Source of the DNA: Rhynchopus sp. YZ270_cl-10 | Taxonomy: Eukaryota | Reading direction: 5' to 3' | DNA length: 64,000 nt | Assembly (NCBI GenBank): GCA_964035575.1 | Contig: OZ037841.1 | Span: forward strand, 1,240,001 to 1,304,000 | Shown here: piece after piece, positions 5,051-55,669 of the stretch | Position numbering within the stretch: position 1 is the stretch's first letter | How the letters are laid out: every line of letters begins with the position of its first letter | Notes under the pieces: generated by a model | What the model saw: the letters and a program-made list of their open reading frames with translations, nothing else | What the model was told of the DNA's origin: nothing | Database searches by the model: none | Translations under genes and position numbers: made by a program

Positions 5051-8000
5051 GTGTACAACCCCGGCAAAGAAAAAAAATTTCCAGGAAAAAAAAACCCCAA
5101 AATGTCCGCGTTTTCTGGAATTTCAGACCCCCCCCCTCCCCCCCCAAAAACGCGGACATTGTCCGCGTTTTTTGTTTTGATGCCACCCCCAACAACTACG
5201 CACTAAGTACGCAACAAGTACGTAATATAGGGTATTCCTGTATTTTTTTTTCTCGTGCACAAAGTACGCAGCAAGTACGCAAAATGGGGTTTTCAGGAGC
5301 GCCAATAATAAAGTAAAACCGCCCCACAATTTTGATTCAAGGTTTGACCAAGCAGAGGTGGCTTAGGTTTATCTATGATTTTTTTATTTTCGCTGTGCTT
5401 CATATTTTATCTCCGGGGGTTCGATAACCCGCGGAGTGTCAGTGCCTGCGTCCCAGAGGCGTTTGCACTATCAACTTCACTTTGTCTATCACCCCGCATT
5501 TCACAAAAGGCGTCAATATGTCGACAGAACCCACTTCCATGGGCGAATTGTATTTTGCTAACTTTTTATTTTATTGAAAAAGGGTTTTGTGCAGGCATTT
5601 TACCTCAAAGAGGATTGAATTGTTCGGAGTTAGATTTTCAGAATTTTTCCAAAACAAAAAAAGGGTCGGATTTAAAGAAATGCTTGGGTTATGTGTCTGA
5701 GAGGCCTCTTCCATAATGTTATTTCAAAAGATTTATGTTATTTTGATGGCTTTTTGGAATAGTCATGTCACTTTGTGTGTGCATGATCCACTTTTTTTAC
5801 CGGGAAAAAACAGTTTGTTAGCGACACCAATAACACCAAACCATTTTTCACCGTAAAAAAACAAAAAAATAAAACGATTTTCCAGTCCTCATAACCCCGC
5901 GATCACAACAACGTTACTCCCCCCACCTTCCTGACACCCACTTCCTCTGTCTTTCCTCTTTTTGGATAGGTGCAAGGTGTACACTTCTGGAGTCAGGCCA
6001 GCTTATTGCACACGGGAGAGCTGCCACATCGAGGGGTGAGATGTGCTGCTTCTTCTTAATGACTTCTCGAGTCCGCATTGCACTTCGCGGTAGCCCCAAG
6101 GGAAGGCACCCTTCTTCAGAAGGTAGGGAATGCTGCCCACCCCTACCCCCTCTACACTGTCCGCGTAGATCCCCCCACGTAAGGAGTCATCTGATGCCAC
6201 AAAATTGCTCCCTCAAAGCGATGGCATTGGATGGCATGCATTGACGAACTGTGCAAATGATTGCCCCTTAATGTCACCTGCTCTGCTCCCATATGGTAAC
6301 TATCGTGCAAAACCCTAGGGCCATTTAGGCTTGGGGTGTAAGACGGTGGGGTGTTTTTCGAGTGGTTATGAAACGCCTTTTTTTGTGGTAACCGTGTGCC
6401 AATGAAATGCTCTCTGGGGGTTCGATAACCCGCGGGGAAGCAGTGCCTGCGTCCATGAGGCGTTTGCACTTTCAACTTCTCTTTTTTTTTTTTTTGTTTT
6501 TGTCATTGTGCCCTGCATCCTGAAGTATTGTGAGTATTTGAGTACAGAACCCACCTCATCAGTGGGGGGTGAATTTCAATACAAAAAGGCATACAAAAAA
6601 AAAGTGCTAATGGTTTACATGCTCTCAGGGGTGTATGCATGGTGCAAATCCTACGTTACACCACCGTCTAAAATTTTTTTTAGGTGACTAAAAAACAGTA
6701 TGGCTCAAGATCATCTTATTAACTCTTCCCCCCCTTCTTTTGCAGAAACGAGAGGTGATGGGGAGGAAGAAAAAAAAAAATACTCTCAGTTCCGAATCCC
6801 CCGAGTCCCTCTCGTTGATGTCTTTAAAAAAATTTTTTTTTGTCCCTCTTTCTCTCTTTTTTAGTGCGATTCCCGTTCCCCTCGGATATATTCCCTCCTC
6901 CTCCTCCTACGTTATCCCAACAAAAATGCCTGATTTTTTTTTTTTCAACCATTACTATTCTCACATCCCTTCAGAAGGATATACAATTTCCAACACATTT
7001 TTTTTTTCAACGCTCTATTCGCCGTAGTGCTTAAATGAGTGCACAGCGATGACACAAAAAAAGGGCAACACTAATTTGTTTTCAAATTAAAGTATTACGC
7101 TTCTCAACCCTGCCTGTTGCAGTCACTGCAAAAAAAAAAAAATGTTAGTGGAGTTCATCCTGTGTCTACACTAATACAACCAAGTTTTCAAAAAAGAAAA
7201 AGGAGGAAAACCCAGAGATTCGCTGTGTGCGCATCCTGGCCCCTTTTAGGTGGACGATTTATTGAGGTTACAAAACTAATGTAATGTATCCTCAGTGTGT
7301 CTGCACATGATACAGTGCTCTCGGCAATCAAAAATGCCTCGATCAGTACACTGATACATTTCACACAAAAAAAACCCAACCCCTTTTTTGAACGATGTTT
7401 GCGCCCTCAGACGGAGCCTTATCATCGCAGATATACCCCTCCCTTTTTGTTTTTTTTATTTTTGGAAAATGCGATGCGATTCAGGGCAAAAAACCCGACA
7501 AAAATTAATATATTGAGCATACCCCACCAGATCACTCTGAATCATTTGAAAATATTGAAGCTTTTTTTTTTAGCTTTGTCTTTTGTGAGGGCTCTGTTCA
7601 TTTTGTCTTTGTCACCCAAATGAAAGAAAGAAGGTTTTTGGCAGTAAGGTCTGTCACACAATACACCTAACAGATTATCAAAAACAAGAATAGTGTTTGG
7701 AAAACTGACAATATGCACTTGAAACACATGTTCGTTTTTGAAAAAAGAAAATTTCACGTTTTCCCCCCCTCCACCCTCTCCCCACTCCCCCACCTCCACA
7801 CCGCACACAACCATCTGATGCCTATGAACAAAGCCATCTCCTTAAATGGCTGGCACCGGATGGCAGGTGTGTGTACCCTGTAGAGATTCATGACACCGTC
7901 ATACACTAAGTGGTTGTGCTCACAAAGGGCATATCCTAGCAGGGCTCCTCTAAGTGGCCAGAGAGGGTTGCTCTTTCTGGGGGTGTGATGTCATGGCTGT

Positions 8001-9954
8001 GTGCGTCCTTCAGGAGCGTTGGTTGAGCATTTTTTCTTTGAGACATAAGAGGTGTACGAGAAGTGCAATCGGCCATTCTTTCCCCATTTTTTTTCAACTT
8101 ACCTTCCTTCACCCCCCTGTAAGGGCAACCGTAGGTGAAGTAAGGTATAGTATTGAAATCGATGTGGGGGGGGAGTAAAGGGTCAATTTTACAAAACCAG
8201 ATTTTGAGGAAAATTTTAGCCGAAAATGGGCCCCACGTATAAGGAACCGGGCTCATATTTCTCAAAATTTAAGTGGTCAAAAAATTATCCAATTTTCGAG
8301 ATTGACCCCACCACTGCACGGGCGGATCCCAAAAATGCAAATAAGGACCCTTTTTAATTTGTTCTCTTGAAATGTATAATTTCATGTTTTCGCGAAAAAA
8401 ATAACAACTGATCCCTACAAGGGTTGAAGGAAGGTGGTTGAAAATAACAATAACAACAAGAACAACTAATTGCTAAGAAAAAACGGGTGTGATGTGGAAA
8501 ACTCCGCGCGATTTTCGAAACCACCGTAGCATCCTGGCGATTTGGTGGAGGTGCTGATGCGCCTGGTGTGATCGATGTGTTGTAGTCTGTGCATTCTGTG
8601 TTCCTTCCGCACTGCTCCAACGACGACGACAATGTGGGGAGCCTGTGGACAACTACGAGCTGGAACACGCCCAGCCTGCCGAGCCGACGTCCAACAACGC
8701 TCTCGAGCAGATGGTGCTGGATGAAGAGGACAGCCCCCCTTCTTGAACGTTTCAGATGCTGGCGTCCCAGTGGGTCTGGCAGCGTACGAAGAGCGTAAGC
8801 ATACCTACAGAAGAGCAGAATGCTGGGCGTGTTGTAGATTATTTCTACAGGATGGAGTTCCACATCACACCCCGTTTTTTTCCGATAGCAATTACTTGTT
8901 TCACCTACAGACAATTCCTTTCCCCATGAACAGAGAGGTGCATTCTCAGCCGCTGTGTGCTCAACCAGCGGCTGTCTTACGATACCTAAGGAGATGTGTT
9001 ATGCAAACCAAAAAAAAAAAATCCGTGTGTCCCTCACAAGCATTCAGCATGTTCCAGTTGCCCTTTTAAAAAAATGTGTTTTTCTTCTGTGTGTGAGGCA
9101 CATTAAGATTTTCCTTGTTTTTTTTTTGTTGGAATAGTGTATGTTGCCATTTGTGCAAAGCGTCACTTTCCCCTTTGTTCCAACAGAACAGAAGGTCAAA
9201 AAAATAGGGATTAAAGCGTGGATGCTTTCAGGGTTGCAGTCTATAAATTAATAGAAAAAAAAATGTCCCCCCTTTTATTCGGATTCTTTTAATGGTGGGA
9301 GGGGGTGTATTTGGTCAGAGATATTTTGATTTAGTTCTGTGTTTTTGGTTTATTTCATTTTATGCTGATTCTTCTTCTTCTTCTTCTTCTTCTCTTTTTT
9401 TTAGGTGGCTAAGCAAAGGCTTAGGTTCATCTTATAAACTTTTTTCTTTTTCTTTTTTAAATTCTGCGTTGTGTTGTGTCCAGCTACGATGCCACACAAC
9501 ACACACCCCCCACCTCCGCAATGTTACACTCTTGAGACTATCCACACAACTGCCTTTTTTCCAACACACAGCCCTGTCTCCCACCCTAATTATTCAATTG
9601 TCACTCCTTGAATAAATTAGCAGAGAAGTTCACAGCATTTTTTGGGCGCAGATCTCACGCTCTCCGCTCAAGGCATGGAATTTCACCTTTTTTCAGAACA
9701 TTTTATTATGTGATCTCAACTAGGGTAAGGATAGAGGGGGACTAAATTTCCGTTCTTTTTTTAAAAATTTGGTTTGTTTCGGTGCTTTCAAGATGGCTAA
9801 GAGAGGCGAAGAATTATCTTACCCACTTTTTTTACCTCTTTTCTTACTCCTTCTGTTCTGCCCCTTTTGTCTCGGTGTGCCCTGGGAGTGTTTCCGCTTC
9901 TTTTTTTTTTTTTTTGCTAAAAAAAAAATGTTTGGAAAATAGTGCAACTTTCAC

Positions 9955-10105: not shown

Positions 10106-12279
10106 TTTCATCTTTTTTCGTTTCTCTCTTTATTAACAGAGTGCACCTCACCTCCCTTGGCATATTTTGTTATGAGCACAATATGGTGGTGGAAAAAGAG
10201 AAAAAAAATAAATAGATGAACTATAGTCCTTCTCGTGTACGCACCTTCGTAACCTCCAGAAGCCTTAGTTCATTTTTTCTCTTTTTATCTCATTTTTGTA
10301 TTATTGCAATTAAGCGCGTGTTATGTGTGACACACCCGAGGTGAAGTCTTTCACGGTTACGTTTTCAGATGTAAACCACGAAATGGATTGTAGGACTGCA
10401 TGGTTGGGGTGTCCACCTCCCCCCCCGGTACAGCCGGTCATATACCAAGGTACACTGTCACGAGAGGGCTTTGTATTTCAACCCTACTTTTTTTTTCTCT
10501 TCTGTTCTTAACATAGTGATAAATGCTTCGAGATGTGTTGTGTTCCTTTTGTGTCAATACGGTAGTGTGTGCTTGGTGCTCCTTCTTTTCAGGATATAAT
10601 TTTTGTGACCTTTTTTAAAGGTGGCTAAACACCATAAGGGCTTGGATCATCTTACCAACCGCTTTCCCTATATTTCAATTTCGATGAAGTAGGCGGCCAC
10701 ACGCCATGTCCTTGCTCTCCTCTTTTTTTTTGTCAGGTTGTTAGACATTAATTTGTCTCACGTTTTATTTCGTCTTTTATGTGTTCGCGTGGTGCATCCT
10801 TCAAGAAAAAACTTATTTTGGCACATAAATAGGTCATAAATAGGACCAATTTTTCTCTTCTGTTGCCGCAGGTACTTTGTGCTTTCATCGGGGAGGGGCT
10901 GGCATCGTACAGTGAGTCAGTTGGAGGTGATTGCATCAGTAACTCTTTTTTTGTTGCAATTTTTTTCTCGTTTTCTTTTGAAATCAACAAAATCCGATCC
11001 CTATTTTTACAGAATCAGTATCATTTTCGTTGTTTATTTTTGCTCAGATTTTCTTTCAAATTGTTTTTTCCCCCGAAATTTTGTAAACAACTTCCGGCGG
11101 GCCACGTTTAGAACAGTGATTCTTAGGCTCGTCTTTACCGACTTTTTCATTTTTTATCCCCCCCCCCTTCTTGCTTTGCATCGTGTTGAGTTCGCTCATC
11201 TAGTGATGTATCTGCATTGGCAAACCATTTTTGTTCTTTGCTAGCCTTTGATTTTGTCTAAAACCAAAACAAAGAAAGGGTGCATGTGTTGACCCTCTCA
11301 AATACTTTCAATTCTGTGAACTGAAAGTATAATGAATCTAATTTTGATCGTGTGGTGTCTTGACACTTTCTTTTCGCGGATGGTATCATACAAACTCTCT
11401 TTGTTTTTTTTTTACAAACGACGCCCCAGGTTTGTGTTTATATTCCTCTGGTGTCGGCTGCGGGGTTGCGCTTATCCTGTTGAGGGTCGGCATTACAAAG
11501 ATTTTCCTGCTAGCATTGGTTCTGTTGCCTTCCTTACCTCTACCCTCTTACCCACAAGGAGCCTCGCCCATATTGTCTTTTCAAGGTGACTGGGAAGTGC
11601 GAGAGGTTTAGGTTCATCTCATAAACTTTTTTTCTTCTTCGAAGGTGGACCGCCGGATGAGTGCTTTGTGTACCGGCCCCCCCCCACTACCGGTAACCAA
11701 TAGGGTTCCTTTTTACACCTTTTGTTGTTTTATCCGGATGACAGGCATCGTGGGTATGGTGGTTATCAACAACTGCCATTTATTCTCCACATGGTGCGTC
11801 CAGTTGTCCGGTGAGACATTTTGTGCGTTTTTCAACCTCTTTCTTTTTCTCTTCGTCGATTTGTTTCCCTGATTTTTCTTTTTTTATCTCCACCCCCACA
11901 AGCCTCACACCAATACCTCAAACGAACAAAAGCAGATTATCAAACAATAGAGGGGGGAAACTGTCTTTTTTTTTTTTTTTTCTCTCTCCAAATTTGTTGC
12001 CGTTTTGGACCATCACCCTTTTCACTTTTCACCTGGAGTGACTTTAAGGCATCCTTTTTTTCTTCTTTTCCTCTGGGGGCGGTATCCCCCATTCCATTGT
12101 AAATATTCTGCACAGTTTTATAGTGACTAAGCACGAGAGGCTTAGGTTCATCTTATAAACTTTTCTTTCATTTCCCCCTCCATCCACAACCAATTTCAAA
12201 ACACACACTAAACCCCTTATTTTTCCAGGCAGCATTTTTGTGGGGTTTATCCCCCTTTCCCTCTCTATTCAAACACAAA

Positions 12280-13224: not shown

Positions 13225-16060
13225 AGTTTTTTTGGGGGGTGAGGTTTTTTTCTTGCCTTTTTTTCACTTGGCCGAGTGAAAGACCCCCTTTTCAAATTTA
13301 TGTGTAATCTTGATAACGATTCAAGGCGACTTAAGTTCATCTTAAATATTCTTTTGAGGAAGACTGAAAACTGACGACTGTCGGTGTGTGCCTGAGTTGG
13401 GACACAGGAGGGTGTTTTGCACTTCCAACGTTTTCTTTTTTAAAAACAAGACCTGCCTACCGTCCTTGCCTTGCTTCCGCGAGCTTCGTTGTTATTCAAA
13501 CAAAACGGGGATAGTCAATCCTTTGAAATCAGCCAACTCAACGCGGGTAATTTATTTTGTTCCTTCTTCTTCTTCTTTTGTTCCAGACATTCGTTTTTTC
13601 GACCTTTTTCTTCTTTTCCCTCGATGGAGATCCGATGCCTGCGTCCACGGCGTTTGCACTTCAACTACCATTTTTTTCATAAACTATTTTTCTTAACCTA
13701 CGATGCCGCCATGGCCTGAGCAGCATAAATGATTTTGCAACCGCACGACTGGCAGCGGTGTTTTTGTTGCAGTATCGGTGTCCGGTATGGCGTTTGCACT
13801 TTCAGCTTCTCTTTGTTAACGATAGTGGTAATGATGTGTGCACGAGAGGCACATGCATCATACAAGTTTTATTGTGATTTCATCCGGATGGCTGGCATCG
13901 TACGTGGGTCAGTCGGAGGTGCCTGCATTAATAACTTCACTGAATTTGTTCTTATTAAGAAGGGGATGTAGGTGATGGGGGATGTAGGCCACTCACACTA
14001 CCCTCGTCTTAAACCAAACCGTTATTTGGTATCACAGTGCTTTGCACTTCTTGTTGCACTTATTACTATAAAAAATTCTCTCCCTCCCATCCCCCTAAGA
14101 CTCCCCCCCTTTGTTTGTATTGCTGCAGCCGCAGGTTTAGAATGCTATTGTTTTGTCTTTTTGCAAACCTCGTGGTGGCGCAAACAACTTAGGGTTAAAA
14201 TCCTCTAAAAAGTTGGCTTTATTTTTCCTTTATTTTCTCTTTTTTTTTTTGAAGTTTTTTTTCCCACTAAGGTGAATCTACCCCCACTAAGCACAGTTGG
14301 GCTTAAGTTCATCACCCAAACCCCCCTTTTTTTCCCCCCTGTGTGCTGCTTGCAAGTTTCCTGTAAACAACTCTGGTGCAGCACCTGGGTTCGACAACCC
14401 ACAGAGCGTGCCTGCGTCAGAGGCGTATTCAAGAGCGTCCTGTCAAGAGCGGGGTTTGTATTTCAGGGGGAATCTGGCCTCTCGGCATTCCCACGCAAGG
14501 CCCAATTTACAACGTCGCGATAACTTTGTTCAAGGAGCTGTATTGCATTTGAAATATATGCTCATTGGCGGAGTGCCTATTTCCCCATCTTTCCAACTTT
14601 TTCATCTGTGTTTTTTTTTTGTTTTGTTTTGTTTTTGGTCGTTTCACTAAATTGTTTCTCAACTTTTACAAAAAAGAGAAAAAATGCAACTTTCTGTTCT
14701 TTGACCGCCTGATTTTTTCTATCGGAGTTTAGTGGAGTTTGGCGGAGTTTAAATACACTGAACTCCACCAAATTGCAGGAAAAATCAGGTGGTTTGATTA
14801 GAAAGTTTTAGAAAACTAATTTTTTTTTTTTTGCAAAACCAACAAACGAGTTTTGGAACGCACCCCCTTTATAACATATAAGTAACCCAAATGGAAAATG
14901 GTGTTTGCCTTTCTCCTGTGGGGTGAGACACAGTGTCTTCATTTTTTTTTTCGTGCCCTCTGGGGTTCTGCCTGCACCATCCGGTGCCCGATAAGGCGTT
15001 TGCGCTCTTTTCAACGTCTTTCTTTTTATTTCTTGCTTTTGTACGATAACGATGATAAGAAGTGATCAAAAGTGTCTGCGAGAGGCTTAGTTTCAGGGGC
15101 TTTTCTCTTACTCTAAACCATATGGCTTGCAAAGCAAAACAGCAAAACCTGGCCGTATTGTGATATGCTAATTGCCCATCATAATGCACATCGCAATACA
15201 GCATTGCAATGTGTATTATGATAGGCAATTTATCACAATTCATCCACTAGCAAAACCCCCTCCCATCCTCTCCATATGGCCTTACCGTCATATCGAACAA
15301 TCACCTCTCTTATCCTGAAGTCGGATTCTATGTTTTTTTTGTCAAAAAATAAAATAAAAAAAATACACGCGATTCTCCAAAATGCATTCCCTTTTTCCGC
15401 CCAGAACGGAAGCAAAATGCACAGAAACCAATGCATTTCGGAGAACCTGTTTTTTTTTCTTCTTCTCTTTCTCTCTCTCTTTTTGGGAACATTTTTTGAT
15501 CCCTATATGTTTATTGAATGCATATGTTGAAATATTCTTTCTCTTTTTATTGATAACCCCGCGGAGTGTCAGTACCTGCGTCCCAGAGGCGTTTGCACTG
15601 CCAACTTCAACCCTTTTATGCACCACAAAACAACCCAGGGTATTAACTTCGTTTTTTTTTTTTTCAGACTGGGCTAAATGAAACGTTTTTGCCCGAGGGG
15701 AAAAAAACGGCATAATTTTCCCCCAATTTTTTCCCGAGCCCAGTCTAAAAGGCTATGCTTAGGCGAAGCTATTACACTGAAACAACCTTTAACATCCCCA
15801 CCCGCATATCAAAGGCACATGTCTTTCTTCTACCCATCCAGGGGAGAGGTGTTCTTTTCGCCTTTAGATAAAAATGCTGACAACGAAAAAAAAAAAATTG
15901 CATTCTCCCTCTCCCTCCCTCTCCCTCCATCGTTTTTCTTCCCTCCCTTCCACAACCTCACACCCTCCTCCCTCCCCACCTCCCACAAACCACAAAAACA
16001 GGGAGTGCCTTAGGGGGGGAACCCGAGGGGAACTCCCCTCCCCCCCCTTCTTTCCCCAAA

Positions 16061-25623: not shown

Positions 25624-25644
25624 ATAAAACCCTGAAAAAAACCC

Positions 25645-43100: not shown

Positions 43101-44555
43101 AACACAACGAAGACCTTTGGCACGCACTAAACTCCTGGGTGCGAGGACTTCAGTGGGCCCACGTCGGGTCCGAACACTCAATCAGCCTCATCGAGCTGGC
43201 AGTGGACTTTGAGCTCACCACAGGAATGCCGCTCCCAGACGTTGGCAGCCGCCGCTATCCGCAGTTCAAAGCCTCTACCTCGTCGTGCACGGTTAGGGAC
43301 CATATCGCGGACCACAGCGGGGTGGAAATGTTCTTTGATGGCGGAGCAAGACAGAACAAAACTGTCTTCGCGAGGGCTGGGGCAGGAGCGGTGGTATATG
43401 TGGATGGTGTCAAGAGCGCATCGGTGGCCACCCCACTTCCCTCAGCCAGAAGCAACAACGTGGCGGAGTACGAAGGAGTCATCAGTGGCCTCCGCCTCCT
43501 CAACGAACTCCCCTCTGAGCTGCAAGGCCCGGTCACCATCAGCGGAGACTCCAAGCTGATTGTGGACCAGCTCCGGGGGGTAGCTGACTGCAACGATTTC
43601 CTCAAACCGCTGTTCCTCGTGGCTAAAGAACTGATCAGAGAGGTTCAACCCCGTTTCACCCTGGGGTTCCGCCACATCGCGCGAGAGCGAAACAAGGACG
43701 CTGACGCTCTCAGCAACCAGGCAATGGATGAGGTGGAGAACCAGAAGCAAGCAGAACTCGCCGCTGCCTCCTCGGAACGCGACACCTTCCTGCAAAGCGC
43801 GTTGGCCAAGTCACTCTCACTGGGCGAGCTGATGCAGACCTTTGCGAAGGTGTACAAACCGCAGTCCTGGATGTACGGCCACTACACCAACGTCACTAGC
43901 CTTACTGCCATCGGAGGTTCGGTGACCAGTGGTGTGAGCAAACGAGCAGTTCTCAACAGCAAAACTGAGGAGGTACTGCGCCACCTACAGTCGCACATAG
44001 CAGCCTTTGCAGGGAACCGCCGCTCCCTCTTGTACGAGGAGACCCAGGCTTGGGCAGCCCAGTTCCGGCCACAAGAGCATTACGCTGATGACTGGACTGA
44101 AGCCTCCGCAGGATGGCGAGGCAGAGCGACTGAAGCCAGAGCTGCAGGAAGGGCCCGCCCACCTCGCACGGCCCCTCCAGACGCCAGAAAGTGCGCCAAA
44201 ACCTTGTCTTGTCTGACCCACGGCAAAGTGCGATGTAACTCGTGCAAGACGCTGCGAGCCGCTCCAGAAACCTGCTGCAGCCTACACCACACAGAAGGCG
44301 ATGGCCGCGCCATTGTGATGGACTTCTGCACGAGACATAGGCTCACGAGATGTGGGGCATGCTTGCTAGACAAGAAATCATTGGCCCAGTGCTGCGGAAC
44401 GTGCCACACACGCCACATCAATAACAGCACGTCAGCACGAGGCACACTCCCTCTACATCACAGGCAAGACCCCGCGGGGTCTTCGCAGGTGACGTAGCCC
44501 CCCCCACACCTAAGGGCCATATTCTGCGCAAGAATTACCCTCACTAGGCATTAAC
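40142..44555 (+). mobile_element. 5'-truncated non-LTR retrotransposon (RT, zf-RVT, RNase H, Cys/His-rich tail)
   Basis: Candidate 12-bp TSD CCACACCACACA (40130-40141, 44556-44567). The reading frame is open from the left boundary and no endonuclease domain is seen. No poly(A) tail. Confidence 0.88.
40152..44497 (+). pseudogene. Retrotransposon pol ORF split by two +1 frame changes
   Basis: RT motifs RPITI, DFQKCFD, GIMQGCPLS and YVDD. zf-RVT CPYC..ETVEHLWWDC. RNase H FDGG / NNVAEY / GDS / NKDADALSN with all acidic residues. Frame breaks at about 41820-41900 and 42532-42536. Confidence 0.85.
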
Positions 44556-44580
44556 CCACACCACACAGAGAGACACAACA

Positions 44581-46224
44581 ATGCAGCTGTATGTGCTGTA
44601 CCGTGGGGAACAACACCCTTTCGAAGTCGATGAGAGTATGGGAGAAGACCCAATAGAATACGTGTGTAGTCAGGTGGCGGCTGCAGTGGGGATCGAAGCA
44701 GATACCTTCACATTGCTGTTCGATGGGGAACCTCTGCGCGACCGAGACGACATCATGCAACTGAGCGAGGACAACACGATCGAGATGACTCTGCGGGAGA
44801 GTCAATGCCCGACAATGGATCTCTCTTGGTCCAACGCCCTCAGCAACAGAGGGGATGGCTTCCTCGCGCACCACACTTGGTTGACGACAATCACTCTTCC
44901 TCAAGAAAGCGACGTCGAGGATATAGGCAACGAATTCCTGTTGGGGTGTCGTGGGTTGACGACAATCGATCTCTCTGGTCTCAGCAAGGTCACCAAAATA
45001 GGGTATGGCTTCCTCGCGGGGTGCACCTCATTGACAACGATCACACTGCCTGAAGAGAGCGCTGTCACGGAGATAGGCCACAGTTTCCTGTGGGCGTGCA
45101 GAGTGTTGACGACAATCGATCTCTGTGGTCTGAACGGTGTCGCGGATTTAAGCAACAACTTCCTGCGGGAGTGCACTGGGTTGACGACAATCAACCTCTC
45201 TGGTCTCAGCTCTGTCAGGAACACAGGGTATGGCTTCCTCACGAAGTGCACCTCATTGGCAACGATCACACTACCTGAAGAGAGCGCTGTCACGGAGATA
45301 GGCAACGACTTCCTGCGGGAGTGCAGAGGATTGAGGACAATCAATCTCTCTGGTCTCAGCTCTGTCAGGAACATAGGGTACAACTTCCTCGCGGAGTGCA
45401 CCTCATTGACAACGATCACACTACCTGAAGAGAGCGCTGTCACGGAGATAGTCAACAACTTCCTGTACGGGTGCAGAGGGTTGACGACAATCAACCTCTC
45501 TGGTCTCAGCGCTGTCAGGAATGTAGGGGATGGCTTTCTCTCGAACGGCAGGTCATTGACAACGATCACACTGCCTGAAGAGAGCGCTCTGACGAAGATA
45601 GGCAACGACTTTCTGTGGGGACGCAGTGGGTTGACGACACTCGATCTGTCTGGTCTCAGCTCTGTCAGGAACATAGGGGATGGCTTCCTCGCGAACTGCA
45701 CCTCATTGGCAACGATCACACTGCCTGAAGAGAGCGCTCTCACGGAGATAGGCAACAACTTTCTGCAGTGTTGTTTTGACTTGACGACAATCGATCTCTC
45801 AGGTCTCAGCTCTGTCAGGAGCATAGGGGATGGCTTCCTCGCGCACTGCTATTTGACAACGATCATACTGCCTGAAGAGAGCGCTCTCACGGGGATAGGC
45901 GACTACTTCCTGGATGGGTGCAGTAGGTTGACGACAATCGATCTCTGTGGTCTGAGCGGTGTCACGGATGTAGGCAGTAACTTCCTGCGGGAGTGCAGTG
46001 GGTTGACGACAATCGATCTCTCTGGCCTCAGCTCTGTCAGGAACATAGGGGATCGCTTCCTCGAGAACTGCACGCTGCCATCGAACGAAAGGAAAATAAC
46101 AGTGAAGCTCACCGGCAGCAGCGACGTGGTGTCTGCGCGAGTGCTGTCGGGATTGGACGGAACGGACGTTGTTGAGATGGTTCCCCCAACAGAGGCTACA
46201 CTTGCGTTCATTCAGGGTAGCTGA
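44581..46224 (+). CDS. BspA-type leucine-rich repeat protein with N-terminal ubiquitin-like domain
   Basis: Alternating 25-aa repeats LTTITLPEESAVTEIGNDFL..C and LTTIDLSGLSSVRNIGDGFL..C (75/150-bp DNA periodicity). N-terminus includes FTLLFDGEPLRD (Ubl-like). Confidence 0.9.
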   Translation: MQLYVLYRGEQHPFEVDESMGEDPIEYVCSQVAAAVGIEADTFTLLFDGEPLRDRDDIMQLSEDNTIEMTLRESQCPTMDLSWSNALSNRGDGFLAHHTWLTTITLPQESDVEDIGNEFLLGCRGLTTIDLSGLSKVTKIGYGFLAGCTSLTTITLPEESAVTEIGHSFLWACRVLTTIDLCGLNGVADLSNNFLRECTGLTTINLSGLSSVRNTGYGFLTKCTSLATITLPEESAVTEIGNDFLRECRGLRTINLSGLSSVRNIGYNFLAECTSLTTITLPEESAVTEIVNNFLYGCRGLTTINLSGLSAVRNVGDGFLSNGRSLTTITLPEESALTKIGNDFLWGRSGLTTLDLSGLSSVRNIGDGFLANCTSLATITLPEESALTEIGNNFLQCCFDLTTIDLSGLSSVRSIGDGFLAHCYLTTIILPEESALTGIGDYFLDGCSRLTTIDLCGLSGVTDVGSNFLRECSGLTTIDLSGLSSVRNIGDRFLENCTLPSNERKITVKLTGSSDVVSARVLSGLDGTDVVEMVPPTEATLAFIQGS

Positions 46225-46465
46225 TCGGCAACAAAATGAGGGTGCGGTTGGGTTGTGCCGAGTTGCTTCAGCAGGTACAGCTGTGTGATGTTGTTGTGTC
46301 TCTGATATTGAACGGGACAGGGGAGGGGATGGGATGGGCGGTTAGGTATCGGGGTGGTTTGATTTGTTTCTCTGACGTCACCCTCCCGTCACTACCCCAT
46401 CGCTTTAGCACTTTTCAGTTATCACTCAAACCACCACCCCTTCTTCAGGCCACCCCACACACACA

Positions 46466-47791
46466 ATGGAATCACCGTATTCAATGAAGGGGACACCCGA
46501 GAAGGTTGTGTCGCAGCGTGTCATGGTGCCGTCGACCCCGGGTAGTCCACGGCGTTCACGCAACCCGTTGTATGCGTTTGAGAGTGGTGGTGGGCCGGAC
46601 CATGATGAGAGTGCGATGCGGACAGCACGTTGGGAAGGGCAGCTCGCACCCCCTGAAGCATTTCGCCAGCCACAGCTCTGGGACAACGAAAGCACCGTGG
46701 GGAACGGGAATGGAAATAATGCAAATGGGGACAGAAACCTGGCAGACCGTCGTGACACTGTCGTGGCGCCGATAGCGGTGTTGTCGCCCGCACACTCTGC
46801 ACCCACAACAACACCGCCCCCCACAACGACGTACCCTGCACGGTCGTACATCTGCGGGAACCTCTCCACCACGGTGGTGCTGCTTGGGGCATGGGCAGTG
46901 TTGTTTTTTGCGTGCTGCGTGCCTGCGTGGGAATGGTACCGTGATATCGAAGATATTGTGATCGGTGGGGTGGTGGTGTTTGACTCAGACGACAGCGCAA
47001 GACGGCTGTTGATTGCGGCGGTGGGGGCGATGGTGTCGTCATGCTGTCTTGCCCTGCTTGGCTGCATTGCGCTCCTCCACATGGCATGCGGGCATGTGCA
47101 GTGTGCTCTCGGTTGTGCTACCCCCTTTCTCATATGCAGCTGGGCCGGTGCTGGGGTATACACCGGTACAATGTCGTACCACCTATCGCAAATCGATGGC
47201 GCCTCCACCAGAGCAGAGGTTGCAGGCTATGGTACGTTCGCCTCGGCATTTATTGTTGCGGTTGCAGGGGGCGTGCTGTTCACAGCGAGCGTCAAGCCGC
47301 CGTCGACGTCGTACGTTGTGCCTATGAAGGCGCAGAGCTCGCAGAGCTTTGTGTCCATCTTTTTTCGGGAAAATGTTGCAACATTGGTGGCCTGTTTTGC
47401 GACGGTGGTGTTTCAAGTATTCGGTGTAGTGGTGCCGTTGTGGGGTGGTCCGGTGGTGGAGTACAGCCCTGTGGATGAGGACCGGCTTGAGACGTGGTCT
47501 GATACGGCTGCTATCTCTGGGGCTACGGCGGCAGTGATGTTTTCAGCACTCATCTGTGCTGTGCTTGCGCCGCTTCTTTGTGGGCGGCGGGAACACTCCA
47601 GCATGGTTGTCATCCTTCTCACTGTCGTGTCGTCGCTCTCTATCCTCGCCACCGCTGGAGCGCGCATCTGCGTCGCTGCCGAACTCTGGAAACACTGGGA
47701 CTCCGCAAAAAAATTCGAAGACACCGGCTCCATTGCTGGAGGATCGATCTTCGCGTTGGGGGCCCTCCTCTCTGCCTGTGCTACGTTGTGA
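46466..47791 (+). CDS. Hypothetical multi-pass membrane protein (about 8 TMs)
   Basis: 441-aa ORF with a disordered N-terminus followed by two blocks of about four hydrophobic helices. Confidence 0.75.
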   Translation: MESPYSMKGTPEKVVSQRVMVPSTPGSPRRSRNPLYAFESGGGPDHDESAMRTARWEGQLAPPEAFRQPQLWDNESTVGNGNGNNANGDRNLADRRDTVVAPIAVLSPAHSAPTTTPPPTTTYPARSYICGNLSTTVVLLGAWAVLFFACCVPAWEWYRDIEDIVIGGVVVFDSDDSARRLLIAAVGAMVSSCCLALLGCIALLHMACGHVQCALGCATPFLICSWAGAGVYTGTMSYHLSQIDGASTRAEVAGYGTFASAFIVAVAGGVLFTASVKPPSTSYVVPMKAQSSQSFVSIFFRENVATLVACFATVVFQVFGVVVPLWGGPVVEYSPVDEDRLETWSDTAAISGATAAVMFSALICAVLAPLLCGRREHSSMVVILLTVVSSLSILATAGARICVAAELWKHWDSAKKFEDTGSIAGGSIFALGALLSACATL

Positions 47792-49458
47792 ATGGGGGAG
47801 GAGGGAGGAGGACTCAGGGGGGTATAGTTTCATCTTAGAGCATTGCGGTGTAAAAAATAGACAGTCATAGAATGACATAGAATAGAAGGGGAGGGGAAGG
47901 GAGGAGGGGGGTGAAAAGGCGCTGCTGTTATGATTGCAATAGCGTTCTTGTGATCGGGTTGTGTACAAAAAAAAGTAGTGGAGTTCATCCTCGGGTGTCT
48001 ACACTAATACAACCAAGTTTTCAAAAATAGAAAAGTGGAGATTGTTGTGGCAAGCTACACGATGTTTTTTTCAAATAGTTTATCAAAAAAAGAAAGAAAG
48101 TTGTTGCTGGCCCGTTTGGCCTTTCTCGCAAACCCGTATGCTATACGGGGACTTTGTGTATTAGAAATTATGTGAATCCAATGCCGGTTTGTCGGTGTCG
48201 CGATGCGCCCTATCTGATCGTTTATACTTTTTTATTAGAAGGTGACTAAGCGCGAGCTTAGGATCATCTTATAAACTTTTTCTTCCTTTCTTTATTATTG
48301 CGCATGTACGTCCCGGCAGATGCCTTTGGTTCCCTTTAATATAATTATGTATTGGTGAGTATGTGCACAAGCACATTCATCTTTCAAGTTTTCTTTTTCT
48401 CAATTTTATCTTCTCTTTTTTTAAAAAAACAGTGAACCTGTGTGAACCCTGGCATGTCTGTCTCCAAATATGCCAATGTGAATTTTTTTGTAAGGTAGCA
48501 AGCCGGGAAAAGCACACGTAATCCACATGTACCCAAATTTTCAATTTTTTTTTTCCACATGTTGAAATCCACACTTTCCACCGGTGCAGCGTAATCCCTG
48601 ACAGGGCTCATCTTACCAACAATACCAAGCCAGTTTCTATTTTATTTTTCTAAGAGATGAATGTGCACGAGAGGCACGTTTATCTACACGTTTTCTCTTC
48701 TCAATAATTTATCACCTCTTCCAAGGGTCTGTCCATGATATGAAGGGACCACCCGATGGAAGCGTTTGGGATGAGAACAGTGCAGGTATTTCATCCCCCA
48801 ACCCCCCCTTTATTATAGTCCCGTCTCCAGGTAACGGCGACTAGCACCGAGTGGATCAAGGAGTATCTTACTGTTTATTCTCCTTTTGATGCACACTTGT
48901 TCATTTTGTATTTTCTTGTTGTCTGCAGGGTACTGCTTTTATCCGGGGCTGGCATCGTTCGTACCTGCAGCAATAGCTAACGTCTATGAATTGAACGTTT
49001 CAAGCGTTCCCCACAACCTTCCTTCACCCCCCCCTGGAGGGTCAGGCTCAACTCATCTTTCAAGTTTTCAGTTTTGTTTATCTTCGCCCCACTGTCAACC
49101 CCCTCTGACAGCCTGTGTGAGTGCTTCTCCCCCTTTTCTTTATCAAGGTGACTAAGCACGGGAGGCTTAGGTTCATCTTTTCTTTTTGTCAGTGCCTGCG
49201 TCCCAGAGGCGTTTGCACTATCAACTTCACTTTCTTTTTCCTTTCTTCAAATCCTATGTTATGTTAGTAACGTGCGTATTTGCGCCCCTCTCTCCCCCTC
49301 CCCCTCCCCCTCTGAGAATCTTTCATCTAAGCATCAGAACGGCTCAGGTTTCTTAACCCCCCCCCTCCACTCTCTTTTATACAACTTTCAGAATCTTTCC
49401 ACTATTTTTATCACCCCACTTACAGCACCTCCCTCTCCCCCTCTCCCTCACACAAAAA

Positions 49459-50483
49459 ATGCTGTCCGAAATAGAATTACCGACACGGGATAGGAGTGAG
49501 TTGTTTTTCATGCATAGAGAAAACGCGCGGGAACGGAGGGGTGTGTTGCCTGTGTTTGAAGAATCGCCTCCGCCTCTTGGGTGGGTGCAGGCAGTGGCGA
49601 AGGTGGAGCATGCAGAAGGGACGATCACAAAGCTGTTGCAACAGTTGCAGGAGTTGCAGGCAGTGCACATTGTGGAGGATGCGACGCTGGACGGCAAGCA
49701 AGAAGGCTTGGAGCAGCAAATTGTCGACCTCTCCCGCCAGATCATGTCCCTCTTCAAAACCCTCGACACTGCCATCAAACGCGTCGTCCAGGATGCAGAC
49801 GACCAGGAAATGCTTCTCAATGTGCACCGTGGGTTGGTAACCAGAGTAGCCGCGCTGCACGAACAATACCGGGTCTGTCAACAAAAGTACTCCGATGATT
49901 TAAAGCAAAAACAAGAAATGAAAAATCGGCTAAACACGATGCTTTCATCCTCGGAGACACAGAAGTGGGAGGAGGACGAGGCAAAGGAGTGTCGCATCGA
50001 CGACCTCAAGCTGCAAGGCTACGCTCCAGAGCACATCGAATCCATCCTTCTCGACGAAGAGGTCGCCAAAGAAAAGGCAGAAGCCCTAACGGACATAAGC
50101 TCGGCACTCAAAGAACTGCACTCGATGTTCTCAGACCTGCATGCACTCATCATTGAGCAAGGTACCATGATTGACAGGGTCGACCAGAACATCTCTCAAG
50201 CGCGTTCCAATATGCAGTACGGAGCGGAGCAGATACGGGATGCCAGGAAGGTATGACAAGTCAATGCTATATACCCCCAGAGGCGGCTTACTCTCTTTTG
50301 ATTCCTCTCTCTCTTTAGCTGCCGGAGAGAGGATTTCATGTATTTCTTTATGGCGACGAAGCAAACCTAGAGGCTTAGGTTCGTCTTGTAAACTTTTCCT
50401 TTTTTTATAAAACGATCAAGTACCATGGGACTAATTCCAATGTTTCTCTTTCTTTACAGACAAAACGATGCCTCGTGCAGTAA
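49459..50483 (+). CDS. Syntaxin-16-like Qa-SNARE; 2 exons (49459-50250, 50460-50483), ending in a CaaX motif
   Basis: N-peptide TRDRSELF, PPLGW, SNARE motif LIIEQGTMIDRVDQNI. AAG|GTATG donor, CTAAT branch-like site and TTTACAG acceptor give ...ARKTKRCLVQ*. Confidence 0.85.
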
Positions 50484-51356
50484 TGGTTGACGACGCTCGT
50501 TGGTTCGCATTTGGGTTGGAGTAGGCGGGGGGGTGAGGGGGTAGTGACTTAGTGGGGGTGGGGGGGAGGAGAAAGACGACTTGCTTCTAGCCCGAACCTT
50601 GTAGCTTTTTGTTTTATTTCTGGAGTGTCCTTTTTTGATTTTATTGGTGTGTGCACGAGAGACATCCATGTCTTTCCCCCTTTTGTCTCTATTATTGTCC
50701 AAAGGGGAAAGCGATGGTGGGTTTGTTCTTAGGTTTTGTTGTCAGCCCATTAGTTCTCTCTCTTTTTTCTTTCCCTCTGTTGCGCAGACAGTTATGTTCC
50801 TCCCGTCTCGTGTGAAAACGGGCTGCAGTTTCAGGAACACAGAACTTTGTTGCAGCTCTCCTTATTCTGTGCATCATGCAGCACACCTGACATCCACATG
50901 TGGTCAATGAAGTGTCCCTCTGTGGGTGTACGGTACAGCCAAGGCGGAGAACCAGTACTCTGCGTGTCTACCTGCATCTAGAGGGTGTTTGCACTTACAA
51001 CAAATGAACACATGCTCCTTTTTCTTCACCCTATGACGGAATTTGGGGGAGAAAGCTGAACGAAAAGAAATGCAAGGAGTTACCTTGCAATGTGCACACC
51101 ACACTTTCAGAACACAAAAAAAAAAGACCACAAAAGACATGCACATTACTTCAAAATATGAAGCTACCCAAAAATTCTCCTATCTTTTTTACTCTATGTT
51201 TTCACTCCCTACAGCTGGCACAACACCCCCTATCAGATAGCACACACTTGCTACCCCACACACCCCCCCTCCTCCCCGCTCATACGTACGCTCAGTTCAA
51301 TCTTTTTGGATATAAAGAGCCTTTCTTCCCCACCCTTTTTTGCCTCTCTCTTCTAA

Positions 51357-53180
51357 ATGAACCCTTCCGCTAACGCATTTGTCCCTGGAATGGTAGGGAT
51401 GGCTACTGGATTGCAAGGGGTTGTGCCGAATGCATTGCCAGCAGGCATGCAGACTGGTCTCCCTGATGCGCTTGGCGCACCTCTTCCCGCTAACACCACC
51501 TTTGATGCAGTTGCCGCCCTGCAACAGCTGCAGCAGTTTCAACAACTCCAAGCACAGCAAGCTCAGTTGCTGCAAGCTGCTGCCGCTGTCTCCCCAGAAG
51601 CGCAGATCGCGCAAATGATGCAAAGCATGACACCACAGCTCCCAGTGCAAACCCCGCAGGAGCAGCTCGAAGGACTTCTCGCTCTGAACCTTCTTGCCTC
51701 AGCGAATTTGGTGCAGAAGGTGCAGTACCAACAGGCAATATTGACACAACAACAACAGCCGCAACCGGTGATGGGCACCCCTTTGAACAGAGTGCCTGAT
51801 AAGAGGGCGCGGAGGGGGTTGGCAGTGCGGGTGGAAGGAGGGTCTGCGCCAGCATCGTCTCTGCCGTCTCCGGTGAGCAGCAGCAGTGCAGGGACGACGT
51901 CGCCCACGAATATGTCGCGCAAACCGCAGAAGGCGCTTGATGTTGTGGTGTGCACCCCATGGTACCCGGAAGGTGTCAGCAAGCACGACGTGCGTCTTGC
52001 CGAGGAGCTTCTCTGCTTCGCAGAATTCGTCCTCCTCACACCATCGGAGGTTGCCCAAAGGAGTCGTGCGATTGATGCGTTGAGGCATACAGACGTCTTC
52101 TCTGGCTGCCGTGTCACCCCGTATGGTTCGTTCATCAGCGGTACTATCACGTCGGCGTCGGCAGTCGATGTTTGTGTTGACATGTGCGGCAAAGACGCTA
52201 TCACCCAAGAATCGATTGCGACGTTCGTTGCAAAGGCAGGTCTGACGTTGAAGGGGGTAGTGAGTGTGGTGGATGATCCGGCTGGAGGGCAGAATGGGTT
52301 TGCGCAGGTTCACAGCGAGGCTGCGGCGGCGCTTCTGAACATCACGTTCTACCAGTCGCGGAGTGACGTTGCGGGGGATGCGAACACTGCAGTGCGCGAA
52401 TGGCTCCGCCGCTTCCCCAGCCTTCCCCAGGCGCACTCCGTCCTCCGCCAGGTCCTCCACCAGACAGGAAACCTCGACGTCTGCCGTGGTGGTCTCTCCT
52501 CCTACGCACTCCTCGTCATGCTCGCTGCTCTGTGCACAGAAATCTCTGCCAAGGTGCCTGCAGTCGCGCACTGCCCCAGCGCGCTTCTGCTGCAGGCATG
52601 CCGGGTGTACGGAGGAGGCTTCGCTTTTGACACAACCTCAATCTGCGCAAACCGCGGCTTTGTCACAAAGCCGCAAAGCGAAGAGAAGGTCTTTGTGTGC
52701 GATCCGTTGAACGCAGGGAACAACGTGGCGGCGAATTGTACACGACTTTTTGCGATTAAGGCGCAGCTCGCGCACTGTGCAAAGGCGCTGCAACGGTGGG
52801 AGGTGGACGTCCCTGTTGAGGAAACCCACGGTGCGAAGAAGGGGTACAAAGGGCGCACCCCTCTGTCCGGGATCATCAGTCATCAGAAGCTCTGGGGACG
52901 TGCCACTGAACGTGAAGAGGCAGCAGCTGAAGCAGCGAAGCAGTCTCCAGAGGCTGGCGAGGAGGACGAGGAAGTGACGCTCCCTGGGGACGAGAGTATC
53001 TGCGACGCAGCGACCACTGCCACCGCAACTACCTCCCCGCCAAGAAAGCGCAACAACTCTGACGGATCTTCCATCGCAGCCATCTTCGCAGTCACCTCAT
53101 ACGATTCTCTCGCTTCTCTCGACGACGACCCAGCTCTCGAAGAAGGCATTTTCAAGGACCTCGACCAACTTACAATGTGA
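51357..53180 (+). CDS. Trf4/PAPD5-like non-canonical poly(A) polymerase homologue with PAM2 motif (probably catalytically dead)
   Basis: LTPSE..R, YGSF...SAVDV, GGLSSYAL and DPLNAGNNVA motifs; N-terminal MNPSANAFVP; Q-rich region. Confidence 0.85.
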   Translation: MNPSANAFVPGMVGMATGLQGVVPNALPAGMQTGLPDALGAPLPANTTFDAVAALQQLQQFQQLQAQQAQLLQAAAAVSPEAQIAQMMQSMTPQLPVQTPQEQLEGLLALNLLASANLVQKVQYQQAILTQQQQPQPVMGTPLNRVPDKRARRGLAVRVEGGSAPASSLPSPVSSSSAGTTSPTNMSRKPQKALDVVVCTPWYPEGVSKHDVRLAEELLCFAEFVLLTPSEVAQRSRAIDALRHTDVFSGCRVTPYGSFISGTITSASAVDVCVDMCGKDAITQESIATFVAKAGLTLKGVVSVVDDPAGGQNGFAQVHSEAAAALLNITFYQSRSDVAGDANTAVREWLRRFPSLPQAHSVLRQVLHQTGNLDVCRGGLSSYALLVMLAALCTEISAKVPAVAHCPSALLLQACRVYGGGFAFDTTSICANRGFVTKPQSEEKVFVCDPLNAGNNVAANCTRLFAIKAQLAHCAKALQRWEVDVPVEETHGAKKGYKGRTPLSGIISHQKLWGRATEREEAAAEAAKQSPEAGEEDEEVTLPGDESICDAATTATATTSPPRKRNNSDGSSIAAIFAVTSYDSLASLDDDPALEEGIFKDLDQLTM

Positions 53181-55669
53181 TTTTTTTTTTCAAATAATTT
53201 GGTTTTTCAGCCCCTTCTAGGGGAAGAGAATGCAAGAATTTTAGCGTGATTTTTTTTTTTAGTGTGTTTTTTTCAAGGTGAAACAGAGATATAGGTTCAT
53301 CTTAATTTTTTTAAAAATAGTGCTTCTCTTGTGTGTGTTGTTAAGAGTCTCATTTTTTTTTTTGTTCCCTGATTCCATGATGAAAATACTTGTTCCCCCC
53401 AAAATTGCCGCCATCGCAATGAAATTCCCCTTCGTTTTCGTTTTTTTCTTTTTTCACCAAACCAATGCCCTTTGAAATACCAGAAATTAAATTTCTGCTT
53501 CAATTTTTTTTCAAATAAACCCCCCCATCCCTGACTCCCATTTGGGTTCGAAGGCCAGTGTGGAAAAAAAGGGGGGTTTTTTTTTAGTGTCCTTTTACAA
53601 TGTGATACAAGAAGTTGTGTTGCTCGAAAAAAAAAAATCTGTTATGCTCAAAGAAGACTATTTTACGACACGTTGTGATCCCTCAGCGCTAATATTTTGA
53701 AACGGGAATATTTTTTTTAAATTGTTTTGTTTTAAAGGTAAAGGCTAATACCTATCTTAACCAGCCTTTTCTCTGTTGTTATGTATTATGTTCTCTTAAT
53801 TAGAACGAGGTTCTTGTTTTTTAATCTTACTCACTCATCTTACGCTTCTTTGATTTTTCTCTTGGTTTTTTTTTTTTATAACGTTTATGAATTCTTTATT
53901 GGTATTTGTTACCCGGTTTTTCTTATTCGCTTTTCCCGTTAAGCGCGGTTTCGCTTCGTTTGTTTTGTCAAATTGTTTTTTGTTTTTTGTTTTTTGTTTT
54001 TGTCGTCCAACCCACTAATTTTAAAGCTAAACCATGGCAAGGGTATATCAATACTGCTGATTGCTTTCTGCCTTTTTGAGTATACAGATAACAGACCCGA
54101 ATCACCCATCAAAGATGGGTATTTCGGTTATTGTCGACACCACAGCGTGTGTGACGTCATGTCACACACTGAGTTTTTTTTTTAAAATATTTCACCATCA
54201 CCACCACCCCCGTCAATCCCTTTCAGCGATACGCTATGCTGTCTGCAAAAACAAAAAATGCTAATATTTTCCCTCCTCAGGTGATATTATTTGTACAGAC
54301 CCTCTCGAGAAAAAAAAATATATATCAGAAAGATGCATAACTACACCGAGAACACCATTTTCATTTTTTTTTTTCCAGAGAAATGTAAAAAAAAAAAATA
54401 CGGCGAGAAAACATTTTTTGGTTTTCTGCGTGACTTTTGTAAAAGAAATAAAGACAATTTCAGAATAGTATATCGTAAAGAAAGTACAATAACCTATAGA
54501 GGCAGGGAGGGGAGGGCCATCTGTCTGTCGGTGCGTTCCCTCCTATGTCTTGACCCCCCGACCCACCCCCCCTTTTTTTTTGCCTCAAGTGACCCATCAC
54601 AGCGAGGCTTGGGATCAAAACCCTTTTTCTTACCGAAAAAAAGTTGTTCAGTACTGCAGACACGTTCTCCCGTGTGACCTGGGCAGAGACCTTGCTGTCT
54701 TTGCTTCCTGGAAAATGGGAATTCCTTCCTTGACTGCGTCGCGAATGTCGATATGTCATTCTATTTTCAAGAAAGTGTCATGTGCGCAAGAAATTGGCTG
54801 TGGAAAAAAAAAATCCCTCTGTCGCTTGCTGCTGGCGATATTTCCCCCTTTTTTTTCCGCAGTTCATTTTCCAACCCTTGACTGATTTTTTTTTTTTTTG
54901 TTGGGAGGTGACTAAGCATAGCGTTAGATTCATCTTCCCAACCCTTTTTTTTTTCTTTCTTTTCCTCCCTTTTTTTTCTTTGAAAAATTGATAACGCGTA
55001 GTCCTGTGGTTTCCATGTTTTTTTTTTCTTCCTTTTTTTTTCGTGTTTGCACTTTCATCCTTAAAGGTAACAGCCCCTCGCCGTATCCTTGCAACATCCC
55101 AACTTCTTCGAAACGTTGCGTTCTGAAACAGAGAAGGGGAATGCTGGGAGAGGTACACAAGGGATGCATTGCCATTTGCATACGCACACACACCACTCTG
55201 ACGACTAACCGACAAAAAAAGCTTCTCAAAATGGCATATTATAGAGTGTGTGCGCAGCTTTCTTCTGTGCAATCTTTTTTTTTTTTTTTTTTTTTTTGCA
55301 CGCCAGCACACCAAGGGGTTGTAAGATGGGTCAAATATTTTTGAAAACCAGAAAACCAGAAAACCTATCTTATACCCTGAACACACAAAATTTACAAACA
55401 AAAAATTTTGGACAGTGGAGATTGCACAACTGTGGCAACACAACCGAGGCAACTACACTACTCCAACAATTTATCAAAAAAAAAAGCAAAGCTTCAGTTA
55501 TTAGTGTAGACATCCTTGAGTGTCTACAGTACTTCAAGTTTTCAAGCAAATTTAAAAAAAATCTGGACAGTGAAGGCTGCACCAACAGATTATCTAAAAG
55601 GGCGCCAAACAAAATAAAATTATATCCTACCTTTTTTGGGGTGGCGACAAGGGGGGTCGGAACTGGGCA

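Follow-up and report, generated by a model that had tools for sequence, protein, structure and literature searches.

The Rhynchopus gene cluster and the family A repeat

The window analyzed in this study is a stretch of 64,000 nucleotides from Rhynchopus sp. YZ270_cl-10 (GenBank assembly GCA_964035575.1, contig OZ037841.1, positions 1,240,001 to 1,304,000 of the forward strand). The window gene with its ATG at 29149 has Rhynchopus euleeides (65%) and R. humris (57%) as its closest named relatives, followed by Diplonema and Flectonema (48–50%), which marks the host as a Rhynchopus-like diplonemid. All 10 host genes between 12 and 53 kb lie on the + strand, as expected from the unidirectional gene clusters described for Diplonema (PMC10161547). 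A truncated long interspersed nuclear element (LINE) lies among these genes, and the non-coding DNA of the cluster carries a short stem-loop repeat, designated family A, which is the subject of this report. The repeat is real and apparently undescribed; a literature search found no description of it, although a related Diplonema repeat could still be treated in repeat or untranslated-region (UTR) sections that the search possibly did not reach.

A profile built from 14 seed copies was run with nhmmer against the window, with matches kept at 3 bits or more and with the reversed window and 10 local shuffles as nulls. This search gave 33 matches, all on the + strand. Nineteen exceeded the best null (10.6 bits in the reversed window, 8.7 bits in the shuffles), of which 14 were the seeds and five were new. 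A covariance model, whose 15 strong matches are its own training set, gave 31 matches at E up to 5, 29 of them on the + strand. The curated set comprises 27 A copies (15 full and 12 partial, some scoring under the null maximum) and six copies of a subfamily, A′. At all 21 coordinates listed in an earlier, sequence-only reading of the window, the sequence is as described, in full or as a fragment.

The following copies are on the + strand. They lie at 6681–6728 (inner stem partly broken), 9402–9444 (4-nt loop), 10618–10664 (TACCAAC-tail variant), 11583–11631, 26769–26815 and 54905–54947. Further copies lie at 9790–9831 (decayed), 28286–28331 (followed by a 3′ fragment of another family, B), 28400–28448, 35701–35746, 36725–36771 (near-consensus, 132 nt before an ATG and also supported by folding), 48239–48281 (short loop) and 50350–50398. 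Another copy, at 12120–12165, stands 159 nt before the ATG of an ankyrin gene, and the copy at 49145–49179 lacks the tail and is directly followed by a family B copy. Partial copies were found at 5345–5374 (nhmmer) and near 13327, 14270, 15079, 28166, 31074, 31267, 31354, 35766, 53276 and 54587. At 10214–10276, nhmmer and folding identified an A-related hairpin with a long loop and both arms.

The stretches 12120–12190 and 36725–36792 contain near-identical A copies that have a pyrimidine flank of about 20 nt on the 3′ side in common, and both stand 130–160 nt before an ATG. They possibly represent a subfamily carrying a pyrimidine tract. The gene at 36858 had been labeled PDZ in the sequence-only reading, but it had no Pfam match at E 0.01, which leaves this label unconfirmed.

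The copy at 50351 lies, as had been claimed, inside a predicted GT-AG intron (50251–50459) of a syntaxin-like gene. The possibility that the repeat is itself a non-canonical intron was rejected: no copy overlaps coding sequence, and 97% of introns in Rhynchopus are reported to be canonical (PMC12621601).

Searches beyond the profile were negative. Rfam gave no match on the window at the gathering score, and none of its 18 weak matches at E up to 5 overlapped an A copy; the tRNA scan of the window found none. The family A pattern matched no metagenome stretch and no viral stretch. The family models had no match in 10,386 bases of five metagenome loci that carry distant homologs (29–41%) of one window gene; this negative is uninformative, as the loci are short and of unproven diplonemid origin.

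Structure of the hairpin and covariation

In the consensus of family A, an outer stem of 6–7 bp, which includes a fixed G-T pair, is followed by a bulge of 2 nt and an inner stem of 6 bp. The loop has 3–10 nt, and the tail is unpaired; the predicted stem has 13 bp with the 2-nt bulge. The whole element is about 45 nt long including the tail, which extends only 7–11 nt beyond the 3′ arm and is unpaired in the predicted fold. RNA folding at 36726 gave −13.0 kcal/mol on the + strand versus −7.8 kcal/mol on the − strand, and the + strand folded better in five of the six full A copies folded, the exception being the copy at 50352. These predictions, of a hairpin with fixed G-T pairs, support the single-strand structure proposed in the sequence-only reading.

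One explanation for such a structure is that family A is a host cis-acting RNA stem-loop (a 3′ UTR or pre-mRNA processing signal with a SIDER-like role) that is kept by selection in most copies, whatever its origin. We consider this explanation unlikely. In its favor, 172 of 204 stem cells in 17 copies pair on the + strand versus 153 on the − strand. The stems are also less diverged than the rest of the element: 62 of 408 stem positions differ from the consensus, versus 35 of 119 in the tail and 11 of 34 in the bulge, a contrast inflated by the choice of copies on stem similarity and by subfamily variants of the tail, but not explained away by them.

The covariation tests, which used 15–17 window copies and therefore have low power, spoke against selection on the structure in each copy. 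When the 3′ arms were permuted among copies, 169.2±2.0 cells paired, so that the observed 172 was not significantly higher (p 0.13). A pair-count tool applied to 15 copies gave 86.1% paired positions versus 85.4% in shuffles (123/500), and double-sided changes were seen in 2 of 13 pairs versus 1.2 in shuffles (177/500). Among 55 departures from a consensus pair, the 32 that break pairing outnumber the 23 that keep it; the departures comprise 17 changes to G-T, three from G-T to A-T, three double changes, 11 A-C and 21 other mismatches. The excess of G-T over A-C changes (17:11) was not significant (p 0.17) and fell to 13:11 if five copies sharing one A-to-G change were counted once. The paired changes quoted in the sequence-only reading are present, one compensatory A-T to G-C change at 28401 and one compensatory change at 50352, where the copy also has a G-A mismatch. 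Their interpretation as covariation within family A did not hold, being not above chance; the copy at 35702 shows GGCGA with an unchanged pairing partner, and its stem is broken by a C-A mismatch at the pair compensated in the 50351 copy. Covariation is non-significant and breaking changes are in excess; therefore, the hairpin is a property of the source sequences, and a constraint in single copies is unsupported by covariation.

The subfamily A′ was confirmed. Its outer stem and loop are as in A, and its middle stem is swapped to TGTGC/GCACA. The six copies in the window, all on the + strand, lie at 13833–13871, 18878–18915 (5′ arm lost), 35594–35633, 48354–48393, 48656–48695 (folding, an unbroken 12-bp stem with three G-T pairs) and 50645–50669 (a fragment). 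The swap between A and A′ is the sole clear structural covariation, and it amounts to one difference between two source sequences. A mobile element with a stem-reading enzyme would give such a swap equally. Template switching is reported to rewrite stems without selection (PMC8794818), and it may be behind the perfected arms at 10214 and 53276 and in A′.

Other hairpin families with a common end

The window also holds at least four further short families of the hairpin-plus-tail type, B, C, D and E, with 15 matches for B (14 above the null maximum), four for C, three full copies for D and one for E. All B and C matches are on the + strand. The longest form of B is found at 6385–6483 and 39236–39348, and shorter copies with a common 3′ end lie at 5416–5482, 15550–15610, 26583–26629, 49187–49232 and elsewhere; the forms of 110, 70, 47 and 30 nt have nested 5′ ends and one common 3′ end. 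Of 14 B copies, 6 lie no more than 150 nt behind an A copy, versus 2.4 expected (p 0.024). Family B contains two hairpins, and its long form has a GGTTCGA-type motif, which we take to resemble a tRNA B box; B is possibly a tRNA-related short interspersed nuclear element (SINE).

The family C hairpins, at 10894, 11733, 13883 and 48945, end in an AAC-T tail. Families D and E are A-flanked hairpins on the + strand (D at 47977–48025, 7147 and 36167; further copies at 55406–55485 and 55511), with one weak D/E hybrid at 59939–59990 on the − strand, outside the gene cluster. The D copies at 7147 and 47977 end in AA[CG]TTTTC. In the non-coding DNA of the gene cluster this motif occurs eight times on the + strand and never on the − strand, and each of the eight forms the end of an A, A′ or D-type copy. 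Across the entire window, the + strand has 11 occurrences and the − strand one, and 3 of these 12 are not tied to A, A′ or D. Unrelated stems with one end motif suggest that the hairpin families would share a copying enzyme.

Strand, position and flanking sequence

The orientation and position results cover one gene cluster, and 'gene strand' is inseparable from 'this strand' for that reason. The flanks of A copies contain 58% and 63% T versus a background of 33%, and T-runs and T-rich windows themselves favor the + strand by 67–86%. The orientation of all 33 profile matches exceeded this bias (p 2e-6 to 0.006), as did a count of 22/22 (p 1.5e-4 to 0.03, the latter at 0.855). Thus, the orientation claimed in the sequence-only reading stands, except that its minus-strand copy at 10214 is one long two-armed hairpin (10214–10276) folding on either strand. 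The strand bias is real and, being beyond that of T-runs, needs a transcription-linked cause or selection.

This bias also favors the host cis-acting stem-loop, as does the absence of A copies from the transposon and repeat blocks; these blocks, drawn post hoc, cover about 25.5 kb and at gene-cluster density should contain about 33 copies. Furthermore, the median 3′ UTR of Diplonema is given as about 800 nt (PMC10161547), so that many A copies may be in mRNA. On the other hand, no positional preference was found. An A copy within 350 nt of the ATG was present in 3 of 10 genes versus 2.74 expected, and the 150 nt behind the stop held a copy in 3 of 10 genes versus 1.75 expected (p 0.24). The placement of the best copies before ATGs therefore showed no enrichment, nor did placement after stops, and with a position that is random relative to ATG and stop, selection on each copy for trans-splicing or 3′ processing is not supported. 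The host stem-loop is also at odds with the many half copies and with the several unrelated hairpin families that behave alike.

No target-site duplication above chance was detected around A (mean 6.2 nt versus 5.7 nt, p 0.25; 14 copies with low-complexity flanks), and the 5′ flanking dinucleotide varies, which excludes a fixed duplication. These flanks bear on two DNA-transposon explanations. The first is a cut-and-paste miniature inverted-repeat transposable element (MITE), with the stem arms as its terminal inverted repeats. Family A is short, of high copy number and has inverted repeats, and the window contains a DUF659 (hAT-type) open reading frame (ORF) at 1829–4057 on the − strand. However, a fixed 3′ tail makes the repeat asymmetric, the flanking dinucleotide varies, a MITE gives no reason for one orientation in 33 of 33 matches, and there is no similarity to the ends of the hAT-type element. 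The MITE is already largely refuted, and we regard it as very improbable.

The second is a Helentron/Helitron2-like miniature rolling-circle element, or one of the ends of such an element. An HUH transposase would read its hairpin as single-stranded DNA, and it would insert at T-runs without duplication. The T-rich flanks on both sides, the lack of a duplication above chance and an inverted repeat whose arms lie at the 5′ end and slightly inward of the 3′ end, respectively, all fit this explanation; HINEs are reported to prefer T-rich targets and to leave no duplication (PMC4067079), compensatory changes are described between Helitron2 families (PMC3627910), and Helitron-like ORFs are noted in Diplonema (PMC10161547). 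In contrast, family A has no separate 3′ hairpin beyond the 3′ repeat, its 3′ arm lies 7–11 nt from the end and not 20–60 nt, its stem, rich in wobble pairs, has little stability as DNA (−4 to −7 kcal/mol), and no Rep-helicase was found among the 17 window ORFs scanned. A rolling-circle origin would also leave unexplained the A-flanked family D, which has the same 3′ motif and strand. We place this explanation after the host stem-loop, as another improbable one.

Copy number and element ends

To the region 46300–55600 we aligned contigs of four public runs, the type of run not being on record. Bins that hold an element had a summed depth 100 to more than 4,000 times that of single-copy bins; summed depth is not copy number, and these figures serve as orders of magnitude only. 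Contigs of run X1 had an even depth of about 100, with no differences, across intergenic DNA and the syntaxin intron. X1 therefore behaves as genomic DNA, and it may be the window's own sample. Its element bins reached depths of 10,000 to 485,000. By rough arithmetic, the 50351 site, which holds A only, corresponds to about 700 genome-equivalents, A and B together at 49145–49233 to about 5,000–8,000, and D and E, with the highest summed depth seen, to about 20,000 each. These depths suggest that the genome would hold hundreds to thousands of family A copies. Such a high apparent copy number is a further point against a host cis-acting signal.

In each of the runs X1, X3 and X5, 95–123 contigs break off at the base of the hairpin (49145), with T-rich letters before it, and 210–280 contigs run on past 49179 with the tail and then a T-run. 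Both ends of the A element are thus sharply defined, and it does not extend further on the 5′ side; no sequence common to the copies was found 5′ of the hairpin in the aligned contigs.

A candidate LINE partner

The LINE in the window (40142–44555, + strand) is a 5′-truncated, frameshifted copy with reverse transcriptase (RT) and RNase H, and it is a candidate mobilizer of family A or a relative of such a mobilizer. It is flanked by an 11–12 nt direct repeat (40130/44556), its target-site duplication, and has a 58-nt 3′ UTR without poly(A). The intact form has 1991 amino acids, with an N-terminal OTU protease domain followed by endonuclease, RT and RNase H. Its family cluster has 17 members, and among the 15 listed, five are full length and more than 99% identical; a second LINE family, P0022, has 24 members. 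LINEs of this OTU-endonuclease-RT-RNase H type (P0021–P0026) are young, multi-copy and without poly(A), with a conserved C-terminal peptide and with relatives in Diplonema papillatum; our literature search found no paper on a LINE of this arrangement. The ATG of a gene encoding a ubiquitin-like plus BspA-type LRR protein (44581–46224, + strand) stands 25 nt past the 3′ end of the window LINE, so that the LINE interrupts the upstream region of this gene.

Stringent LINEs are described as being recognized via a 3′ stem-loop (PMC4176376), and the window LINE resembles them in ending 58 nt past the stop without poly(A). Four diverged LINE families (42–100% identity) have a similar C-terminal peptide, and a stem-loop spanning the stop codon is predicted at the LINE end. 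The best two-arm match to A outside the hairpin families (20/27) falls across the LINE stop, inside this predicted stem-loop (44487–44524, + strand). It is the top score among about 124,000 non-family positions, and shuffled arms reach it once in 20,000. Local alignment of seven hairpin families with four transposon ends gave nothing for A, and p 0.01 and 0/100 shuffles for A′ and E, respectively, against the 800 nt upstream of the LINE. The two-arm match makes a descent of A from the tail of a related LINE a weak lead.

Other features of the window

The syntaxin-like gene (49459–50483, + strand), after removal of the predicted intron, yields the C-terminus KTKRCLVQ without a transmembrane anchor. 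We take this end to be a CaaX-like motif, which suggests that the protein may be anchored by a lipid. Subterminal repeats of the hAT-type element are scattered in both orientations at 4382–5050, 8178–8354, 55913–57510 and 60363–60631. Perfect short tandem arrays occur in the repeat blocks at 20970–21350, 21470–21547, 62550–62900 and 55740–55840, with units of 9, 8, 14 and 10 nt, respectively. The gene at 16061–18736 (+ strand) encodes a membrane protein with a weak Cache-domain match, and its C-terminal region is nucleotide cyclase-like by eye, with no Pfam cyclase match. The gene at 51357–53180 (+ strand) resembles a non-canonical poly(A) polymerase, and its N-terminus is Q-rich.

Discussion

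As described above, family A is a dispersed, sharp-ended, oriented repeat in T-rich non-coding DNA, its single copies decay, and the window's host has young LINEs without a poly(A) tail. The sequence-only reading had raised a retroposon link, and this appears likely for a repeat with such features. The best explanation in our view, to which we give an even chance of being correct, is that family A is a promoter-less, SINE-like, non-autonomous retroposon of about 45 nt, probably copied from polycistronic RNA by the reverse transcriptase of a LINE; the family is more likely selfish than regulatory. Family A would be transcribed as part of polycistronic RNA. Copies on the gene strand would require no promoter, being read through by polycistronic transcription. 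A LINE protein would recognize the stem-loop and use the short 3′ tail as its starting point, and reverse transcription would proceed into T-rich targets. The stem would be constrained in the few source copies that founded the subfamilies A and A′, and copies would decay after insertion. A few of them may have been co-opted, for example the pair that stands before ATGs and has a pyrimidine flank in common.

Several observations weigh against a LINE-copied retroposon. The absence of a target-site duplication above chance, the sharp 5′ end without a truncation series, the complete orientation beyond the T-richness bias and the A-flanked family D, which faces the same way with the same 3′ motif, are not explained by it. 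The tail of A is followed by a T-run, with no poly(A) or tandem repeat; no empty insertion site was seen, and the stems are less diverged than the tail. The LINE connection has its own difficulties. The window LINE is inserted in CA-rich, not T-rich, DNA. Its match to A is only 20/27, its fold shares only the outer three pairs of A, the match was missed by the hidden Markov model, the covariance model and local alignment (p 0.36), and it is one of 28 family-by-end comparisons.

Family A resembles several known systems in part. Stringent LINE/SINE pairs are reported to share a bulged 3′ stem-loop, and eel UnaL2/UnaSINE and zebrafish ZfL2 have, close to their 3′ end, a short stem interrupted by a bulge or an internal loop, as is predicted for A; as in A, stems stay similar and loops vary between families, and the SINEs of such pairs are non-autonomous (PMC1636434, PMC4176376). 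However, A consists only of the hairpin and a tail of 7–11 nt, without a tRNA-like head or a terminal tandem repeat, and its partner is a candidate only. A polymerase III head (tRNA, 7SL or 5S) was not found, there being no tRNA in the window, no Rfam match on A and no shared 5′ sequence.

Leishmania SIDER2 is likewise euglenozoan, dispersed in the non-coding DNA of gene clusters, mostly sense-oriented and T-rich on the 5′ side (PMC11520807, PMC2943621); 82% of SIDER2 retroposons in 3′ UTRs are reported as sense-oriented (PMC11520807). SIDER2 elements run to hundreds of nucleotides; they contain two signatures of 79 nt, are A-rich at the 3′ end and have been shown to act in mRNA decay (PMC11520807, PMC2943621). 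In contrast, A has about 45 nt, no 79-nt signature and an end in a T-run that is not A-rich. The SIRE of Trypanosoma cruzi is a short interspersed element found in pyrimidine tracts near genes in one orientation, but it is about 430 nt long and part of VIPER. HINE/DINE-1 and Helitron2 resemble A, which has T-rich flanks and no duplication above chance, in their T-rich target without duplication, asymmetric inverted repeats and high copy number (PMC4067079, PMC3627910, PMC11417382), whereas A has no separate 3′ palindrome, a 3′ repeat too near the end and a far shorter length, and it is strictly oriented here. In summary, A is like the 3′ tail of a stringent SINE in a SIDER-like setting, yet on the features tested it falls outside classical SINEs, SIDERs, HLE2 and MITEs.

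More speculatively, and with considerable doubt, A may belong to a class of promoter-less micro-retroposons in diplonemids: hairpins of 45–110 nt that end in AA[CG]TTTTC or AACTT and that would form several unrelated families with tens of thousands of copies. They would ride on polycistronic transcription, be copied by the undescribed OTU-endonuclease-RT-RNase H group of LINEs, insert or survive only on the transcribed strand, and thereby seed UTRs and introns genome-wide with a common RNA structure, which may be read by the host.

Should the copies be no more than neutral repeats, family A is an undescribed repeat family of modest interest. If the retroposon explanation is true, A would be among the smallest SINE-like elements and would lack its own promoter, an illustration of how polycistronic transcription alters the needs of a parasitic element. 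A related diplonemid is reported to be transformable (PMC12621601). Diplonemids are thought to regulate genes via long 3′ UTRs (PMC10161547), and family A may supply raw material for these UTRs, as SIDERs did in Leishmania.

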